64,000 nt of DNA from a virus. Lineage: Duplodnaviria; Heunggongvirae; Uroviricota; Caudoviricetes. Below the pieces are notes generated by a model. It saw only the letters and a program-made list of their open reading frames with translations, did no database searches and was not told where the DNA came from. Of the stretch, positions 1,761 through 38,428 are shown piece after piece (the first letter of the stretch is position 1; every line of letters begins with the position of its first letter). Location of the stretch: IMG/VR virus record IMGVR_UViG_2703718787_000017; one strand, given 5' to 3'. Position numbers and translations under genes: made by a program.

Positions 1761-4700
1761 ATGGCCTATTCAGAGGAACAGCGTCCTGAGGCGCAACTCG
1801 GTAACCAGAATCGTAACAGCCTGAACATTCAGCAACCCGGCGAAACTGACAGCTATGAAGCATTTTTCTCTGATCCGAATCGCTGGAAGGATAACAGTAC
1901 GTCGTTCAGCCTGGGCGATGTATTGCCAACAATGGGTAAAGGTTTCGCCCAGTCCGTCCGGGGAACAGGGGAAATGGCCCGTGGACTCGGTGATGCGATG
2001 ATTCAGAGCCCGGTAAAAACAGGGGCGCGTATTTTAAATGAGTTCAGCCGTATGGGGCTGCCGGGTGTCGCAACTGTGCAGGATATTTTTGCCGGTGGCA
2101 GCAGGGGGGCTGATGAGGTCATCGATACCCTGCCTGATGGCAAAAACGCGGTTACTGATACTGTCGGTAAAGGTCTGAAGGCAACCGGTAAGGCTGTCAG
2201 TGATGGTGCTGAAGCCACTGATGAATGGCTGACCGGTAAGATGTCGCCGGGTGCAGTTCGTGCGCTGAATACGCCGATGACCGAAGGCTATGATGATTCT
2301 GCGGTCTGGGTGGCGAAGGGTGTAAACCTGATTGGTGCGCTTGTACCTGATATGGTTGCTGGCGGTGTGGCTAAAAAGGTGGGTGATGTCACACTGCGAA
2401 AAATGCTGACCGCCGGGCTGGAGAAAAAATACATCGCGGCAGGGATGCAGCCGGAAAGAGCCACGGCACTGGCAGCAGAAGCTGTCGATAAAAAAATGCC
2501 GGATTTATTCCAGGCGGGCCTGATCACCCATTCCACAGCCAGTGCACAGGGGCAGAGTGCAATGGCGGCAGCAGATGCTGTTCTTAATGCGGATTACTCT
2601 GAGCTGGCGCAGTCACCGAAATTTCAGCAGACGTTTTTGTCCATTGACGCCGACCCGCAGCACGCACAGCTTACTGATCGCCAGAAAATGGATCTGGCAA
2701 AAGAGCGTGTTGCCGATGAGGTGCGCGCGCAGCTGGCAACCGATCCTGAATTGCTGGCTGTGAATGCCATGGCGGCAAAACTGGGTGACGCACAACTGTT
2801 TAATCTGGTGACACGAGGCACAGCGAAGACCGTTAAAAGCGGCATTGTCAGAAATGCCACGGAACAGGGGGCGATTAATGCGGCGCAGGGCGGCTATTCA
2901 CGCTATCAGGAAAACACGGCATTGCGTGAGACCGCCGGAATGGATGTGTCACCGTGGGAGGGCGTGGCTGACGCAACGATCGAAGGTGCAGCCTTTGGTG
3001 CTGCGATGGGGGCTCCATCCGGTGCGGTTGCCGGATATCGTGGCAGACGTCAGGCCGCAGAAGAAGCAGCCATGCGTGATGCTGAAACCGTGCAGCAGGA
3101 CGACGCAGCCCCGCAACCAGAATCTGTTGATCCGGTGGCGCAGCATCGTGAATCCATGCAGGGGATGAATCGCGAGCAGCTTCTGGAGCAGTATGCTGAT
3201 GCGGATATGGCAACAGAGGGGGACGCATCCGCAGCTCATCGCCGGGAAGCTGCCAGCCAGTTGTTGAATGAACTGGACGAACAGGCGAAGCGACAGGCTG
3301 TGATGAATGAGCTGAAGGCGAAGCCGCGTTCTGAACTGCTTGAGGAATACCGCAGACTCAGCCAGAAAGAGGAGCGCACCGAGACTGAAGAACAACAGTT
3401 TCAGGCAATACGAGAAGTCATTCGCCCACAACAGGAAGTGACGCCGGAAGCACAGTCACAGCCTGAAAATGCGGAGGATGGTAACGGGAGCATTTACCCG
3501 ACGGTGCGGTTCCGGGACCCGAATGAAGTCCGCATTGAAATTAACGGGAATGGTGCGTCCAGACCAGCGGAACGCATTGAAAAGGTGCGCCCGGACAACC
3601 GTTATTTCACGGATGAGAAAAGCGCCATGGGGAGTGATGTTTTCCGTAATGCCGCCGCCACCGGCCTGAAACCGTCCGTAGTGAAGAAAGGCGAGACTCA
3701 ATATGCTGTTGAAATGGATAATCCTGCGTTCTCTGAAGATGTGGCAACGGAAACCATTAACACCCTGGCTGACGGAGAGCGTATTGCTGATGCTGACCCG
3801 ATGGAGCAGCCCGCGTTCATGCGTGACCCACGATTCCGTGGTTTCACGGGGGATGATACGGAGGTACAGGCCCGCCTTGCCCGTGGCAACGTGCCGACGG
3901 CAGAGGAGCTTGTACGTTCACAGATGGCTGAAGGTGATGCCGGTCCGACAGCACAGGAGTTAACTGAGCGTCCACGCCTGCCCGCTCCCGGCGATATTCA
4001 TCCCGGACAGGGATATCCGTTACCGGGAGAGGTGGCGCGTACGCCGGATGAGAATCAGGCAGGACGTGGTGGTCGTTTTACCACAACCGGTGAGGTTAAG
4101 GGCCAGAGTTTCCAGAAAGGACAAGCTCTGGCACCGGAAAACGCCGCTGGTCGCCAGGGGGAAACACTCGAGGGTGAAATGGTTCGTCGTGGTCTGCCGT
4201 CACCGGATGCGCAGAACGCGACAGCACCGGTACGTGAAGGGCTACCGGCTCCGGACATTACACACAATGTCCGTATGCCTCAGCCTGATCAGCTTCCCCG
4301 AACTGTTCGTAACTCATTGCCTGAGCTCGCACAGCAGGCAGAAGTACGTCGACAGGCCGGAGGAAATCGTGACATCCCGCAGCCTGAGACAATCGCACCT
4401 GAATCTGAAACAACAGTCGCTACTGACAGGGAAGCTACCGTGCGCGGAGGTGAAGTCAGGGGCAAAAAAATTGAAGACTTTGGTGAAGAAATTAAGGGCG
4501 CGGCAAAACACCGTTATGCACAGCTTGCTGAAACACTGGGTAAAACGCTGGAAGACAGGGATTATGTCACGCAACCGCTGAGCAAACTGTTCCCGAAACC
4601 GGACTACGCAAAACTGGCGAGCGAAGGGGCTGATGCTGACACCCTGGCAATGATAGCGCTGTATCGTAGCGATATTCCGGTGAAGACGAAACACAATACG

Positions 4701-28929: not shown

Positions 28930-29063
28930 AATTCATTCCCTGTATGAATGATTAAAGGAGATTCTACACCATCCACTGCGAACGCAAAACGTACCAGGAG
29001 GGTGTTTATATTGATGATATTATGTCGCCCTATAACTATACATGATGTCAATAAGTGACAAAG

Positions 29064-29390
29064 ATGATTAAAGCAACGTTACTATTTTTTGCTACTGCGC
29101 TGTGTGAAATTATTGGATGCTTTCTGCCCTGGTTGTGGTTAAAACGAAACGCCAGTATCTGGCTGTTGCTTCCGGCGGGGATTTCACTGGCGCTGTTTGT
29201 CTGGTTGTTAACGTTGCATCCAGCGGCGAGTGGGCGTGTTTACGCGGCTTATGGTGGCGTTTATGTCTGCACGGCGTTGATGTGGCTGCGCGTTGTGGAT
29301 GGCGTGAAACTGACTCTTTATGACTGGACGGGTGCGTTGATTGCGCTTTGCGGCATGTTGATCATTGTTGCGGGCTGGGGGCGCACGTAG
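29064..29390 (+). CDS. ynfA: inner-membrane protein YnfA
   Basis: 108-aa hydrophobic protein [18 protein letters not shown]…. Confidence 0.9.
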
Positions 29391-33667: not shown

Positions 33668-36139
33668 TTAAGAATCAGCCTGACTCGGGATCAGTTTTTG
33701 CCAGATAACTGAAACGTATTTTGCCTGGTAACGGGCGTCATCAAGTGCATTATGGCGCTCACCTTCGAATGGAATAGCCGTTCTGGCATCGAAGTCTATG
33801 GCTTTCCCCAGCTCAACGATTGTGCGTACATCGCGATCGTTGTAGTAACGCCACGGGCAGGGGATCCCCTGCCGTTCATATGAACGGCGCAAAATCGTGT
33901 TGTCGAAGTTGGCTCCATTTCCCCAAACCTGAACAAAAAATTCACCGGAGTTTTCGTCGATAAATTCCCGCAATTGTAACAGTGCATCATCTAACGGGAT
34001 TTCATCGGTCATAATGGCAGATTGCGCTTCGCGTGATTGCTTAAGCCACCATTTAATGGTGTCCCGATCAATGACTCCGCCAGCAGTTTCCAGATCGATA
34101 GTCTTACTAAATTCCGGTCCCATATCTCCGGTTTGCGGATCGAAAAATATTGCACCTATTGAGATGATCGGGGCATCAGGATTTTTTCCCATGGTTTCAA
34201 GGTCGATCATTAGATGGTCACACGTCCTGCTGGTGGATGTGATTTCGTGATGACCGTTCACCTTAATTGGGTGATCTGCCGTCTCGCCAGTTTCATTATC
34301 GCTATTGTGATGCTGATTGCCGCCAGTGTTCTCCTTGTGTGGATGTTCAGCGCCTTCCATTTCCTCCGGATCATCTTCCTGAACTTCAACCTGATACTCT
34401 TCATCGAATGTTTCTTGGTATGTTGCGTCGCCCATCACCGCGCCACAATCAGGGCAGTTGCCGCCGCCGGTCTGACCGCAGGCGGTGCAGACCTTTTCCA
34501 CTTCCTGTTGCGCCACTGGTTCAGGCTGTTTCGTTTCTGGCTCGTTTTGTAACGCATTTGGACTGTTTTGTTCCGCTTTTTGGTAGTTCCGTTCCGATTC
34601 ATGCTGGTTCTGGTTCACAGAATCGCGGGTCTGGATCCCCTTAACCCATTTCGGATCATTCGGGTCACTAATCCCTTCAACAAATTCACCACGTGATGCA
34701 GCAAGCAACTTATCGGCGTCAGGCTGGCTGATATTGGCTGCCTGCATAATTTTGTTTACTTCGTCAGCGGTAACTTTTATCGGCTCTGGTTGTTCTGAAT
34801 CTTCAGCGGTATCTACATTTTGCGGTAAGCCCGTGTATGTGCCATTTTTTCGGGCAAAATATTCTTCTTTTGTGATTTCAGTGGCGCCAGCAGCCAGTGC
34901 CTTATCCAGACCAGAAAGTTTGTTTGCGCGACCGTATTTTTCTCCGTCCTTATCTGCGAAGAGGAAATAGAACGGCCCCTCACGCTCTACAGATGGTTCA
35001 GCTTCCGGCGCGGTTTCATTTTTTGGGATATCAGATACCTCAGTTTCCACTGCATCAGTTTGTGTTTCTGATGACTGGAGAACATCAACAGTGCCCAGGT
35101 CTGTTTCTTCATTCTCAAACACGCCCTTTGTCGTCAGGTATTCGCAGATATATTTGTTCAGTGCTACGGGATCTTTGTGAATGTCGATCGGACGCTCACG
35201 GACAAGGCCAAAAATAGTTTGGCGGTCGTAGCGAAGGGCATCAGGCTGTTTGCGCATTGATGCCGAGATACGCTTCCAGTCTTCGCGGTCGTTGTCGATA
35301 ACTTCTTTTTTTGCCCAGCGATGGATGCTGCCGTCAATGTTTCCGGCATCCACATCACCAGGCCAGAGAGCGTAGGCCAGTTCGTCATCCAGTGTTTTCC
35401 ATGTCTGCTTGTATTCGCGATGAATGGCAGCAATGACCGGGCTGATTTTTCCTGTTGAATTTTCAGTGTACTGTTGATTGGCTCTGGCGCGGGCGAGATC
35501 AACAACAGACGTGTATTTTCCGGTTTCCTTGCGTTCACCTTCGCGACGTTTTTTCCAGATGCGCATCTCTGCCTGAATTTCGGGCCATTTAGCACCAGGA
35601 ATACATTTATGCTTAACCCACCCAATGGCGTGCAACTTAAGCTCCGGATACATGGCGTTAACTTCTGGCATTTTCATCAACGCTTCAACGATATGTCCGT
35701 CGAATGTTGCCATGTCTTCCTGCAACAATTCCTGTGCGCTAATAACCATATCAACGGTGATGTTTTCACATGTGTCGAACTTAACCATGACAGCGTTCTG
35801 TACTTCAGGGGCCAGCTTGTCAAAAGTGACGTTCATCGGATCGGATTCAGTCTCAACCGGGACAAAAGAAGCAGACTCCTCATCCCAGCGGTTTTCCTGC
35901 ATATATTCAGCATCCCATGAATCGAGGGCAGGGCGGGGTATGCCAGGTTTATCCTCGCAGACAATAAATTTATAAGCGCAGTCCTGAGCAGCCGGATAAT
36001 GTTCCAGGAATTGCCAGTGAAATTTTGCTCGAGCACGGCGTTCGTCGCCAGCTTCAATGGCTGTGGCTACAGCCACAGCGCCTTCTTCCCTTGTTGCCAG
36101 TTCGTCAGGAATAGCGGCGCAAATAAAGACTTTACTCAT
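33668..36139 (-). CDS. 823-aa protein with C-terminal DnaQ-like (DEDDh) 3'-5' exonuclease domain; full-length counterpart of the K-12 ydfE remnant position
   Basis: C-terminal motifs DLETMG…(Exo I) and HNALDDARY (Exo III, His-type); long acidic N-terminal region. Confidence 0.8.
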   Translation of the reverse strand: MSKVFICAAIPDELATREEGAVAVATAIEAGDERRARAKFHWQFLEHYPAAQDCAYKFIVCEDKPGIPRPALDSWDAEYMQENRWDEESASFVPVETESDPMNVTFDKLAPEVQNAVMVKFDTCENITVDMVISAQELLQEDMATFDGHIVEALMKMPEVNAMYPELKLHAIGWVKHKCIPGAKWPEIQAEMRIWKKRREGERKETGKYTSVVDLARARANQQYTENSTGKISPVIAAIHREYKQTWKTLDDELAYALWPGDVDAGNIDGSIHRWAKKEVIDNDREDWKRISASMRKQPDALRYDRQTIFGLVRERPIDIHKDPVALNKYICEYLTTKGVFENEETDLGTVDVLQSSETQTDAVETEVSDIPKNETAPEAEPSVEREGPFYFLFADKDGEKYGRANKLSGLDKALAAGATEITKEEYFARKNGTYTGLPQNVDTAEDSEQPEPIKVTADEVNKIMQAANISQPDADKLLAASRGEFVEGISDPNDPKWVKGIQTRDSVNQNQHESERNYQKAEQNSPNALQNEPETKQPEPVAQQEVEKVCTACGQTGGGNCPDCGAVMGDATYQETFDEEYQVEVQEDDPEEMEGAEHPHKENTGGNQHHNSDNETGETADHPIKVNGHHEITSTSRTCDHLMIDLETMGKNPDAPIISIGAIFFDPQTGDMGPEFSKTIDLETAGGVIDRDTIKWWLKQSREAQSAIMTDEIPLDDALLQLREFIDENSGEFFVQVWGNGANFDNTILRRSYERQGIPCPWRYYNDRDVRTIVELGKAIDFDARTAIPFEGERHNALDDARYQAKYVSVIWQKLIPSQADS

Positions 36140-36232: not shown

Positions 36233-36424
36233 TTAAAGACCTGCCGGGATTTCGATATTATCCTGGTGAATAACTTTATCGACCGGGTAACAGTTACCGG
36301 GAATTTTCTGTTCGGTTGCTGCAGTCATACACTCCTGCATTGTCCTGTGAACACTGACTGCAATATCAACTGGCACTCCGGAAACAAGAAAAACTGTCAG
36401 AACAAGCGCAAATGCTGAATTCAT
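36233..36424 (-). CDS. ydfD: Qin-type small lysis-associated protein YdfD
   Basis: 63 aa MNSAFALVLTVFLVSG…VDKVIHQDNIEIPAGL; start overlaps dicB stop. Confidence 0.8.
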   Translation of the reverse strand: MNSAFALVLTVFLVSGVPVDIAVSVHRTMQECMTAATEQKIPGNCYPVDKVIHQDNIEIPAGL

Positions 36425-36609
36425 TGTGCACATCCTTTTGGCATCAGACGTAAACGAGCCAGCATTGAAACAATGCATATTTTATTTAATAGCTCCCGTT
36501 CTTGTTTTCTCTTGTTAATGGCATCTTCAGTAAATACAGGGTTACTGATAGTGACACCAATTTCAAAACAACCTTCAGACGTATTAACGTTTGGTAATAA
36601 CGTTTTCAT
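36421..36609 (-). CDS. dicB: cell-division inhibitor DicB
   Basis: 62 aa MKTLLPNVNTSEGCFEIGVTISNPVF… recognised as DicB. Confidence 0.85.
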   Translation of the reverse strand: MKTLLPNVNTSEGCFEIGVTISNPVFTEDAINKRKQERELLNKICIVSMLARLRLMPKGCAQ

Positions 36610-36783
36610 TATCGCGTCCTCAACAATGAATTTTGTGATGCAGTGCCTGGTGCCTCCAGGTGACGTTAACCAGTTAACAATTAACGTCGGATACAGAGAA
36701 TCCACCCATAACACTGTTTTTGGTTTTAACTGTTCCGCGTGCGCTTAGCCGCATTCACCGCATCACAAAATTCACTTTAAAAA

Positions 36784-36836
36784 CGGCGGCAGAGCAGTCA
36801 CGGAGTAAAACTGATACCGCCAAACGTCACCAGAAA
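36784..36836 (-). ncRNA. dicF: DicF small RNA (ftsZ-targeting Hfq-dependent sRNA)
   Basis: Minus-strand sequence TTTCTGGTGACGTTTGGCGGTATCAGTTTTACTCCGTGACTGCTCTGCCGCC matches remembered DicF; 175 nt upstream of dicB as in K-12. Confidence 0.8.
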
Positions 36837-37113
36837 ATTGATAACAGAGGGCGTTGCAGCGGGGTTGTCACTTAAGCGTATGGTCAACCTGACAACTCGG
36901 TGTCCTCAACGGGGAAGGAATAACCCCGCCATACTTACCGCCGCGCCATTTTGCGGGTTGCCACAACCGGAAGCGCACGGTCGAATTAAATTTAACGACA
37001 CCGTACAGCGAGACGAACTTCGCCGTGCGCTTTCGTGTTGTGTGCCTGCTTTTAACCACGTCAGGCGAGGTGGTATCCTTAAAATCACCACAGTTTTAAG
37101 GATTCATTAAGCA

Positions 37114-37434
37114 ATGTCGCAACCACCAATAAATCCGCTTAAGAACATGAAAATTGATTACTGGTATAAAGCGCTTACAGTTGTTGGCGCTGCGTTGTTT
37201 GTCTTTAATGGAACGTCTTTTTTTGACAGATATCCCGTTGTTCCATTGGGTTTTTTGTCCTCCGGCATCTTTTTTATTGGTTTGGGGGAGTGGATTAATC
37301 ACCCTCTCAAAGTGAGATTTATTGGTCCTGGAGTTTGGACTCGTGGATATAATAGTTCTTCGTGCGCACTCGGTATCATCTTCGACATACTTGGTTGTTT
37401 CCTGATTGTTACAGGAGTCGTCAAGTTCTTCTGA
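37114..37434 (+). CDS. putative small membrane protein with three predicted TM helices, antisense to the dicA-dicB operon
   Basis: 106-aa ORF with three clean hydrophobic segments; RBS weak (GGA 12 nt upstream); conflicts with a minus-strand ORF at 37299-37547. Confidence 0.45.
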   Translation: MSQPPINPLKNMKIDYWYKALTVVGAALFVFNGTSFFDRYPVVPLGFLSSGIFFIGLGEWINHPLKVRFIGPGVWTRGYNSSSCALGIIFDILGCFLIVTGVVKFF

Positions 37435-37482
37435 TGTAAAACCGCAAATGGGGCACGTAACGGGAATTTTGAAAAGCGTTTC

Positions 37483-37671
37483 TCAGGGTTCCAGAACAAA
37501 ATTTTCTGCGGTCTGATTTTGCTTCTCATATTTGTGCTCCGCGTCATTGTGAGAGCACATTCTTATTCTGAGTGCCTGTTTAAACTCACTGAAGCTGAGA
37601 GCTTCTTCGCCTTCGGCAAGGCCTTCGAAGTATTCTTCGTAAGCCTTTTCCATGATTGTGTCGAAATCCAT
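37483..37671 (-). CDS. small acidic protein, YdfB-like
   Basis: MDFDTIMEKAYEEYFEGL…; start 1 nt after ydfA stop. Confidence 0.55.
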   Translation of the reverse strand: MDFDTIMEKAYEEYFEGLAEGEEALSFSEFKQALRIRMCSHNDAEHKYEKQNQTAENFVLEP

Positions 37672-37672
37672 A

Positions 37673-37828
37673 TCACTCACCTGAGTTTCTTTCCAGCCAG
37701 CGACGGGCACCATTTTCGGTTTTAAACGTTTTGCTTTTGGTATACGTCATCGCGGTGAACGTACCGTCCTGGTTGGGGAATACGCCACATACCAGAGATT
37801 CGTTGTTGCCAAGATCGATAGTATCCAT
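37673..37828 (-). CDS. ydfA: small protein YdfA
   Basis: 51 aa MDTIDLGNNESLVCGVFPNQDGTFTAMTY…. Confidence 0.7.
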   Translation of the reverse strand: MDTIDLGNNESLVCGVFPNQDGTFTAMTYTKSKTFKTENGARRWLERNSGE

Positions 37829-38020
37829 GCTGACCTCATTTCCCCTTAACGCCGGGGTAGCGGAACTGTTTGCTGAGAACACCGTGCGGTGTCTTGATGG
37901 AGGTAATTTAGTTTTCTCATTGTTTTTCGTCAAGGTTTTTTGATGAGAAAACTCAAGTATTGGCGCAAGATAAAGCCAATACATTGAAATGTAAGGCTTT
38001 AAAATTTTGTGAAGGGATGA

Positions 38021-38428
38021 TTATTGATGCTTGTTGCGTTTGCGAGCCTCTAATAGCTCGGTGAACAGGCGATTAAAATTCTCAACGCGGGCGCGGAGTT
38101 CGCTGAGTTGTGCTTGTTGCTCTGATTTAGGAAGTGCGCGATACAAACGCAGCATCTCTAACTCATCTTCCGATAAGTCTAAGGCACTATCGAGTGAAAC
38201 AGGGGGAGCTGGTGTTTTGTCCTCGTCGCCAAACAGTATCCAGGTTGGTGAACATTGCAATACCTCGGCGAGGCGATGCAAATTTTGCCCGCGCGGGGCT
38301 GTATGGTCACTTTCCCATAATGAAATTGATGAGCCAGATACGCCAGCAGCTTTGCTTAAACCGTTTTGACTTAAGCCTACCTGCTTACGTCTTTCTCTAA
38401 TGCGTTGACCTAAAGTTTTCTCGTTCAT
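38021..38428 (-). CDS. dicA: DicA-like XRE-family HTH repressor (135 aa)
   Basis: HTH region QRIRERRKQVGLSQNGLSKAAGVSGSSISLWE; C-terminus …LQCSPTWILFGDEDK… as in DicA; divergent from dicC. Confidence 0.85.
   Translation of the reverse strand: MNEKTLGQRIRERRKQVGLSQNGLSKAAGVSGSSISLWESDHTAPRGQNLHRLAEVLQCSPTWILFGDEDKTPAPPVSLDSALDLSEDELEMLRLYRALPKSEQQAQLSELRARVENFNRLFTELLEARKRNKHQ

Follow-up and report, generated by a model that had tools for sequence, protein, structure and literature searches.

Layout of the locus

We analyzed a 64,000-nucleotide (nt) stretch of DNA from a virus of the class Caudoviricetes (IMG/VR record IMGVR_UViG_2703718787_000017; the whole stretch is called the window here), in which a plus-strand open reading frame (ORF) at positions 37114 to 37434 runs antisense to a dicBF operon like that of the Qin prophage of Escherichia coli K-12. 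Judged from its conservation, this ORF is a genuine gene for a small membrane protein. In phages, the comparisons couple it to a convergent partner ORF that reads across it on the opposite strand, and in the window this partner has been cut by a nonsense codon. The initial annotation had proposed a three-helix membrane protein, antisense to the operon and overlapping a less protein-like minus-strand ORF, as a candidate for superinfection exclusion or abortive infection. The features of the gene and its partner are as follows.

37114 to 37434, plus strand: membrane-protein gene of 106 amino acids (aa), from an unnamed family with the motifs DYWYKA and GLGEWINHP, identified from the ORF, its homologs, substitution ratios, and an AlphaFold2 model.
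37098 to 37102, plus strand: Shine-Dalgarno-like AAGGA, read from the sequence, 11 nt ahead of the membrane-gene ATG.
37038 to 37085, no strand assigned: conserved block, a candidate promoter or regulatory site, near-invariant in six lineages including Yersinia, with diverged flanks.
37099 to 37482, minus strand: what is left of the partner ("O") frame, with 128 open codons that align codon by codon with the membrane gene on the other strand.
37483 to 37485, minus strand: TGA nonsense codon cutting the partner ORF, seen in alignments as GGA to TGA in a conserved PGE motif.
37483 to 37713, minus strand: YdfB-like ORF, 76 aa here (PHROG 35040; PHROG 2061), the N-terminal part of a 205-aa fusion ORF in relatives.

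The plus-strand gene and its family

The plus-strand ORF is intact, with an ATG start, 106 aa, and a TGA stop, and in a 100% identical genome the Prokaryotic Genome Annotation Pipeline (PGAP) called it as WP_122990131.1. Enterobacter-type homologs start with TTG, with AAGGA or AGGGA 9 to 10 nt ahead of it. The hydropathy profile of the protein has three peaks, at about residues 20 to 31, 45 to 57, and 85 to 104 (KD15 maxima of 1.7, 1.9, and 2.6). AlphaFold2, given a 32-sequence alignment, predicted helices at residues 17 to 32, 42 to 62, and 85 to 105, with a mean predicted local distance difference test score (pLDDT) of 82, and a beta-hairpin at residues 65 to 79 (strands 65 to 71 and 74 to 79) between helices 2 and 3. 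The three hydrophobic helices described by the initial annotation were thus recovered by both approaches.

The accompanying statement that such helices were unlikely to arise by chance stood in part: conservation makes the gene real, but hydrophobicity by itself was indecisive. At a strict 19-residue hydrophobicity threshold only the third helix passed, and three segments were reached by 2 of 42 similar-sized ORFs in the window. The other multi-helix scorers of similar size were an apparent ynfA and an antisense shadow within the exonuclease gene. Because such ORFs score as multi-helix too, hydrophobicity alone is not proof of a gene, and the status of the plus-strand ORF is better argued from its conservation.

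A protein search returned 60 relatives, including sequences from Yersinia, Herminiimonas, Reinekea, and many metagenomes; many were full length (100 to 111 aa), at 35 to 57% identity. Fourteen alignment columns are invariant and make up the motifs DYWYKA and G.GEW.NHP, with Y16, W17, Y18, K19, A20, G56, G58, E59, W60, N62, H63, and P64 invariant across 32 sequences including the window protein. DYWYKA lies ahead of helix 1 and G-x-G-E-W-I-N-H-P follows helix 2; by the positive-inside rule, the N terminus and the conserved DYWYK and GEWINHP/beta-hairpin segments probably face the cytoplasm. The window protein shares the traits of the family, namely a length of about 100 to 110 aa, three hydrophobic helices, and the hairpin between helices 2 and 3.

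When a library clustered at 50% identity was searched with a profile, 484 representatives had an E value of 1e-3 or less, 212 of these 1e-10 or less, and the homologs were spread over many bacterial phyla. Sequence searches of Pfam, PHROG, PADLOC, NCBIfam, and PDB gave no match to the membrane protein. Non-phage homologs occur in Beta-, Gamma-, and Deltaproteobacteria, Actinomycetes, and other groups, and their neighborhoods vary, from an island by a DUF5677 gene to small-ORF arrays and integrase-carrying elements. The family is widespread, uncharacterised, and borne mostly on mobile elements.

Three family copies, each 37% identical to the query over its residues 7 to 98, were found in the chromosome of Arcobacter sp. 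Pygsuia-1, which suggests carriage on a repeated mobile element. One metagenome contig encodes a reverse transcriptase of 430 aa (L007, 1309 to 2601), located upstream of a Reinekea-type member at a distance of two genes. It was rejected as a linked partner: its best PADLOC match was a generic reverse transcriptase model, and it looks like a group II intron-type enzyme. The array around the Reinekea-type copy was also considered as a set of integron cassettes, and no attC-like repeat family was found.

Nei-Gojobori ratios of nonsynonymous to synonymous substitution rates (dN/dS) in the plus frame were 0.12 to 0.21 against four diverged enterobacterial lineages and 0.06 to 0.15 in the Enterobacter/Pantoea/mEp390 phage group. 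In homologs outside phages, the codon-aligned antisense frame had 3 to 17 stops, so that only the plus frame can code there. On this substitution pattern, the plus-strand ORF is a genuine conserved gene for a small three-helix inner-membrane protein.

The 48-bp block upstream of the gene holds TTAACC (37052 to 37057), a 16-nt spacer, and TGgTATCCT (37071 to 37079), together with an inverted repeat (GCCTG..CAGGC) and one further such pair (CCAC..GTGG). Its candidate roles, on either strand, are those of promoter, operator, and RNA structure; the strict scan for consensus promoters did not flag the block.

The partner ORF in the window and its near relatives

Two minus-strand ORFs overlap the membrane gene in the window, one of 68 aa (37096 to 37302) and one of 82 aa (37299 to 37547). 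In strain A8, Escherichia sp., and phage HannyBb, a minus-strand ORF of 205 to 221 aa spans the entire membrane gene, and by alignment with these the 68-aa ORF is the tail of a recently truncated 205-aa gene. The remnant lacks a start codon ahead of its motif, carries CPICG at 37441 to 37455, and ends at the TAA at 37096 to 37098. PGAP likewise marks ydfB in an identical genome as a pseudogene without its C terminus. Among 80 near-identical IMG/VR contigs, the plus-strand ORF is intact in 79 and the 205-aa minus-strand ORF in 76; the TGA at 37483 to 37485 occurs in 2 of the 79 and is a rare allele. As aligned, then, the partner is a pseudogene in the window through a nonsense mutation, and the membrane gene is intact. 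The 82-aa ORF was rejected as spurious, being in a different frame with 1 to 4 stops in relatives.

AlphaFold2 gave the partner protein a pLDDT of 44, only the YdfB-like helices being moderately confident; the tail scored below 50, which, given the shallow alignment, is weak evidence for disorder. Pfam, PADLOC, NCBIfam, and PDB sequence searches with the partner protein returned no match. Some E. coli prophages lack a partner stop beyond the membrane gene, and the ORF continues in frame into ydfC (in K-12, L141, 1524 to 1742) to form fusions of 245 to 271 aa.

The partner ORF in diverged phages

In the phage-borne relatives examined, a convergent ORF begins shortly past the 3' end of the membrane gene, always at most about 100 nt away and with its own Shine-Dalgarno sequence and ATG, and runs antisense through 59 to 100% of the gene. 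About 20 to 35 N-terminal codons lie outside the overlap; they vary at wobble positions and are under purifying selection. This N-terminal part comes in two types. Type A, M.YEFFERL..PGSV.I....TV.L.GW.L, is found in the Enterobacter/Pantoea/mEp390 group, with 17.7 synonymous and 9.3 nonsynonymous differences over 32 codons and dS saturated. Type B, ..PGE.[LIV]..[IF]P..CP.CG[FHC].., adjoins the plus-strand stop in exact register in E. coli, Escherichia sp., two further lineages, Yersinia, and the betaproteobacterium Roseateles aquae, with proportions of synonymous differences of 0.5 to 1.1 versus 0.06 to 0.54 for nonsynonymous ones.

The Roseateles aquae copy of type B adjoins a P4-type primase. 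The UniRef name of its partner, an FmdB-type zinc-ribbon protein, was not confirmed by Pfam and was set aside. One phage lineage (L155, minus strand by 2501 to 2824) has both motif types in tandem, ..P.AV.SDE.SGV..LEG followed by FIPLYDHCPKCGCDL, which hints that the two types are related by duplication or by loss of the cysteines.

Within the overlap, the minus frame behaved differently from its N-terminal part. Its dN/dS was 1.2 to 1.5 among the enterobacterial lineages and 1.1 to 1.5 in the Enterobacter/Pantoea/mEp390 group, and a simulation that held the plus frame at 0.13 with no other constraint gave a median minus-frame dN/dS of 1.5 to 1.7. By this measure the antisense tail is free of amino acid constraint and shadow-like. 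A comparison of the two frames had been named beforehand as the test that could refute the membrane gene; it found the plus frame conserved at the protein level and the minus frame only stop-free. The description of the minus-strand ORF as less protein-like accordingly applies within the overlap, but it misses that the ORF is the remnant of a 205-aa frame with a selected N-terminal part.

The tail is nevertheless kept open. TTA, CTA, and TCA codons are absent from the plus-strand gene in every enterobacterial phage lineage, despite saturation of the synonymous sites. Resampling of synonymous codons put the probability of zero antisense stops at 0.005 to 0.11 per lineage, with a product over seven lineages of about 10^-12.6, and in simulations an open antisense frame survived in 8 to 12% of sequences after 41 to 54 substitutions. 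A second scan of viral contigs widened the sample by 40 distinct genes, and the complete set was grouped at 70% identity. Antisense stops were absent from each of the 11 clusters with a full-length partner, versus at least one stop in 20 of the 23 other clusters (Fisher test of a stop-free frame against a full partner, P = 1.3e-6). Relatives of comparable GC content at third codon positions (GC3) without a full partner had 1 to 12 antisense stops. In the stop-bearing phage lineages, the convergent partner is 90 to 134 aa long, with a GAGG-type Shine-Dalgarno sequence, an ATG, and a type B N-terminal part, and covers 59 to 95% of the gene. These comparisons indicate that the phage-borne membrane gene is coupled to a convergent partner whose N-terminal part is selected and whose tail is open without sequence constraint.

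Annotation of the two strands

Only the minus-strand ORF is annotated in the RefSeq/PGAP record of strain A8 (L002, 1879 to 2460) and in the GenBank records of HannyBb (PP925841; L027, 2983 to 3600) and mEp390_039 (L026, 3456 to 3911). PHROG 35040 corresponds to this ORF, and the YdfB-like ORF of the window matches positions 1 to 76 of its 205-position profile. At 90% identity, the cluster of the minus-strand protein has 1,798 members versus 141 for the plus-strand protein. PGAP picks one ORF or the other according to whether the minus-strand ORF is intact. Public records therefore hide the better-conserved membrane gene, a systematic annotation error.

Genomic setting

The other genes around the locus are the following.

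38021 to 38428, minus strand: DicA-like helix-turn-helix repressor, first gene on this strand (HTH_3 domain; PGAP; 57% identical to K-12 DicA).
37673 to 37828, minus strand: ydfA (DUF1391; Pfam PF07151, E = 2e-28; PGAP).
36784 to 36835, minus strand: DicF small RNA (Rfam RF00039, 72.5 bits, E = 3e-15).
36421 to 36609, minus strand: dicB (Pfam DicB, E = 1e-39; PGAP).
36233 to 36424, minus strand: ydfD (DUF1482 lysis protein; Pfam PF07358; PGAP).

The order on the minus strand is that of a Qin-like dicBF operon (DicA-type repressor, ydfA, ydfB, DicF RNA, dicB, ydfD), with a large exonuclease of 823 aa also among the minus-strand genes around the membrane gene. The YdfB-like ORF matches the ydfB named by PGAP in the identical genome. 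Together, the DicA homolog and the Pfam, PGAP, and Rfam matches confirmed the antisense setting described by the initial annotation. In K-12, a single DicA-repressed transcript spans ydfABC-dicF-dicB-ydfDE (PMC10448788); Rho-dependent termination within the dicBF operon is not addressed in that study.

Compared with K-12 Qin, homology is lost inside ydfB at about 37575 and returns at about 37050. The ydfB of K-12 is identical to the YdfB-like ORF of the window until this break, after EFKQAL, and the interval in K-12 holds the end of ydfB and ydfC. From this alignment, the membrane gene takes the place of ydfC in a replaceable cassette. About 790 of 5,426 complete E. coli genomes carry the cassette version of the window. 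In every phage or prophage context retrieved, the homolog adjoins cI/cro. A holin function was considered and rejected, all phage contexts being of the immunity or early region and not of a lysis cassette by an endolysin gene.

Several observations concern the same region. In the identical genome, PGAP reports an internal stop in ydfA (L001, 3474 to 3629) and classes it as a pseudogene, although a 103-aa ORF at 37673 to 37984 is open in the window. The DicF-dicB intergenic region (36577 to 36786, minus strand) has a subthreshold match to Rfam STnc100 (33.5 bits versus a gathering threshold of 47; E = 9e-5). E. coli O157 AR-0428 (L003) carries other cargo between DicF/dicB and ydfB, namely a 61-aa ORF with CPxC and CPEH motifs (1950 to 2135, plus strand) and a 129-aa ORF (2322 to 2711, minus strand); it also has a RelE/RelB pair between ydfA and the repressor gene (3286 to 3764, minus strand).

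Further away, a 111-aa plus-strand ORF at 29055 to 29390, some 4 kb from the prophage exonuclease gene, is presumably the host gene ynfA (UPF0060 membrane protein). In K-12, ynfA is located close to Qin, which suggests that the prophage might be inserted at the Qin locus. A 112-aa hydrophobic ORF at 34214 to 34552, on the plus strand and antisense within the 823-aa exonuclease gene, probably arises as a shadow of the acidic N-terminal region that this gene encodes.

Interpretation and alternatives

Our preferred reading joins four elements: a real membrane gene, an accessory ("moron") function in superinfection exclusion or abortive infection, a convergent antisense partner with an open tail, and loss of that partner in the window. 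We give this combination a probability of about 0.5. The phage-borne gene would be an accessory gene placed beside the immunity genes and antisense to the early operon, and its product would act at the membrane of the lysogen against an incoming phage. Such a role appears the most likely one because the gene sits in the slot of sieB, the product is of the small inner-membrane type, and phage Fc02 provides a precedent (see below). As a candidacy for exclusion or abortive infection it is plausible by position only, and the interpretation given by the initial annotation is, overall, partly supported.

In phages, the gene would form a module with a partner made of a short selected N-terminal part, either a hairpin or a Cys knuckle, and an antisense-read tail. 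Transcription and translation of the partner strand across the gene could couple the two expression states negatively. The open tail could also keep the early operon transcript translated where an independent gene cannot fit, avoiding polarity. Both effects of the partner strand are probable under this reading. More tentatively, and with less confidence than in the joint reading, the roughly 320 bp may be a two-strand coding module of many temperate phages of Gamma- and Betaproteobacteria, in which the membrane protein and the Cys-knuckle or hairpin protein cooperate, for example as an exclusion or toxic effector and its controller or antidote.

Several results weigh against the preferred reading. 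A PADLOC-DB 2.0 scan of the window protein and three homologs matched no defence model, and fold searches with the membrane protein returned generic helical bundles only. Homology to SieB was rejected: hhalign of the family profile against Rac SieB gave a probability of 0.2%, and there was no match to Pfam SieB (PF14163). Non-phage homologs have no consistent neighbors, so the function need not be directed against phages. A strict scan for consensus promoters and terminators found neither on the plus strand for the membrane gene. The pair occurs in both orientations relative to cI. In layout 1, that of the largest phage group, the order is cI, cro, partner, and cII, with the membrane gene on the cI strand; in layout 2, which the window has, the repressor and then the partner lie on one strand, with the membrane gene convergent. 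A simple scheme in which the membrane gene serves lysogeny and the partner lysis therefore cannot hold everywhere. The Yersinia partner frame has no canonical start ahead of its motif, and in Burkholderia phage Bcep176 the gene is antisense to its neighbors with no recognisable partner. A search for the partner motif found none for this Bcep176 member, gp33 (L028, 2884 to 3348), whose N terminus as annotated is probably extended spuriously by the choice of start.

The best-surviving alternative is a toxin/antidote-type module for addiction or abortive infection, in which the membrane protein is harmful and the convergent partner transcript or protein restrains it. The genes are indeed convergent with a tail-to-tail overlap in phage-borne members, and the partner starts at most about 100 nt from the 3' end of the membrane gene with its own Shine-Dalgarno sequence and ATG. 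The two genes travel together and are inserted beside cI/cro in either orientation, members of the family are carried by mobile elements, and Bacillus prophages have 3'-overlapping type I systems in txpA/RatA and bsrG/SR4. However, a 106-aa protein with three helices is far bigger than known type I toxins, and many homologs have no partner at all. In the window, moreover, the partner ORF is cut yet the membrane gene is intact, which is hard to reconcile with an essential protein antidote, although an RNA antidote would survive. We consider this alternative unlikely.

A developmental regulator, for instance of FtsH/HflKC, that biases the lysis-lysogeny decision is still less probable. The largest phage group carries the gene on the cI strand, between cro and cII, at the point from which a leftward transcript of the pRE kind would be expected; its conserved motifs are predicted to face the cytoplasm by the positive-inside rule; and lambda CIII and FtsH offer a model for such a role. 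Yet homologs occur outside phages in Beta-, Gamma-, and Deltaproteobacteria, Actinomycetes, and other groups; in the window prophage, an element of the dicBF type, the gene stands in for ydfC, which is not essential; and family searches found no similarity to known regulators.

That only the long minus-strand ORF is a gene and the plus-strand ORF its non-coding shadow is the view taken by GenBank, RefSeq for strain A8, and PHROG 35040. The minus-strand ORF is the longer of the two (205 versus 106 aa), was chosen by several annotation pipelines, and has the larger cluster by the counts given above. The substitution pattern contradicts this view: dN/dS in the overlap is 0.06 to 0.2 in the plus frame versus 1.1 to 1.5 in the minus frame. 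Plus-strand homologs also exist where the minus frame has its 3 to 17 stops, and the pLDDT is 82 for the plus-strand protein versus below 50 for the whole minus-strand tail. We regard it as very improbable.

Finally, an open antisense frame could be a by-product of codon usage or chance with no partner gene behind it, since genes in general tend to have an open codon-aligned antisense frame and three stop-free clusters lack a recognisable partner (L109 and L130, GC content 0.53 to 0.58, and L118, 0.47), but the resampling probabilities, the low survival of open frames in simulations, the stops in relatives of similar GC3, and the coding pattern of the conserved N-terminal part outside the overlap exclude this statistically.

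These results have several consequences. A family of 484 clusters at 50% identity, unnamed in Pfam, PHROGs, NCBIfam, and PADLOC, occupies the classic lysogen-protecting place of temperate phages and is a candidate for a new exclusion or abortive-infection function. The pair is among the better comparative cases of long antisense protein-coding overlap in bacterial viruses. Long antisense overlaps are disputed, and this pair is cleanly testable because a change of TTG to TTA is silent on one strand and nonsense on the other. The two-strand module, if true, would be a new kind of phage accessory system with both partners on complementary strands.

Comparison with known systems

The closest match in position is sieB. 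Lambda sieB lies antisense in the pL operon near the repressor, as the membrane gene does here, and Rac sieB (plus strand) lies between kilR/kilS and ydaF/ydaG (minus strand), downstream of racR, a slot that corresponds to the interval between dicB/DicF and ydfB/ydfA holding the membrane gene in the window. Like the membrane gene, sieB is a prophage accessory gene (lambda, P22, Rac). SieB differs in being 162 to 192 aa long versus 106 aa here, and no antisense partner ORF is annotated opposite sieB in lambda or Rac.

HK97 gp15 and T4 Imm are small multi-helix inner-membrane exclusion proteins, expressed from a prophage or phage, that act alone and block DNA entry. In contrast to the gene described here, theirs are not known to lie antisense within an operon or to share their DNA with a partner gene. 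The type I toxin-antitoxin systems txpA/RatA and bsrG/SR4, likewise prophage-borne, have a convergent transcript that overlaps the 3' end of a membrane-protein gene; here, a convergent gene overlaps at the DNA level. Their toxins, however, are shorter than 60 aa with one helix, and the antitoxin is a non-coding RNA, whereas the 106-aa protein here has three helices, and its partner strand includes a coding region under selection.

Antisense overlapping genes have been described in E. coli O157:H7, among them nog1, asa, laoB, ano, and pop (PMC9927249, PMC5960689). There, too, long antisense ORFs lie within annotated E. coli genes, and annotation pipelines keep just one member of each pair. Most of those genes are young and taxonomically restricted, and their support comes from ribosome profiling; the pair here is instead supported by comparison across many diverged phage lineages.

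In Pseudomonas phage Fc02, the antisense pair of olg1 (sie1) and gene 10 adjoins ner and the repressor gene, and experiments showed exclusion activity for both (PMC9936078). Fc02 belongs to a Mu-like phage group and is likened to the present case by layout. One product of the Fc02 pair was recovered in the insoluble fraction (PMC9936078); it is encoded by the early-operon gene, in contrast to the membrane protein here, which is antisense to the operon. The architecture is nonetheless shared: in the lysis-lysogeny region, one stretch of DNA carries a protein-coding gene on each strand, and one of these genes is on the repressor strand. Its counterpart comes after ner/cro in the early lytic operon, exactly as in the cI/cro/partner/cII layout of the Enterobacter-type relatives. 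The window copy of the pair is interrupted by the TGA, and in the relatives two traits expected of an Fc02-type pair are found, namely purifying selection on the plus-strand gene (dN/dS of 0.06 to 0.21) and a coding signature on the opposite strand.

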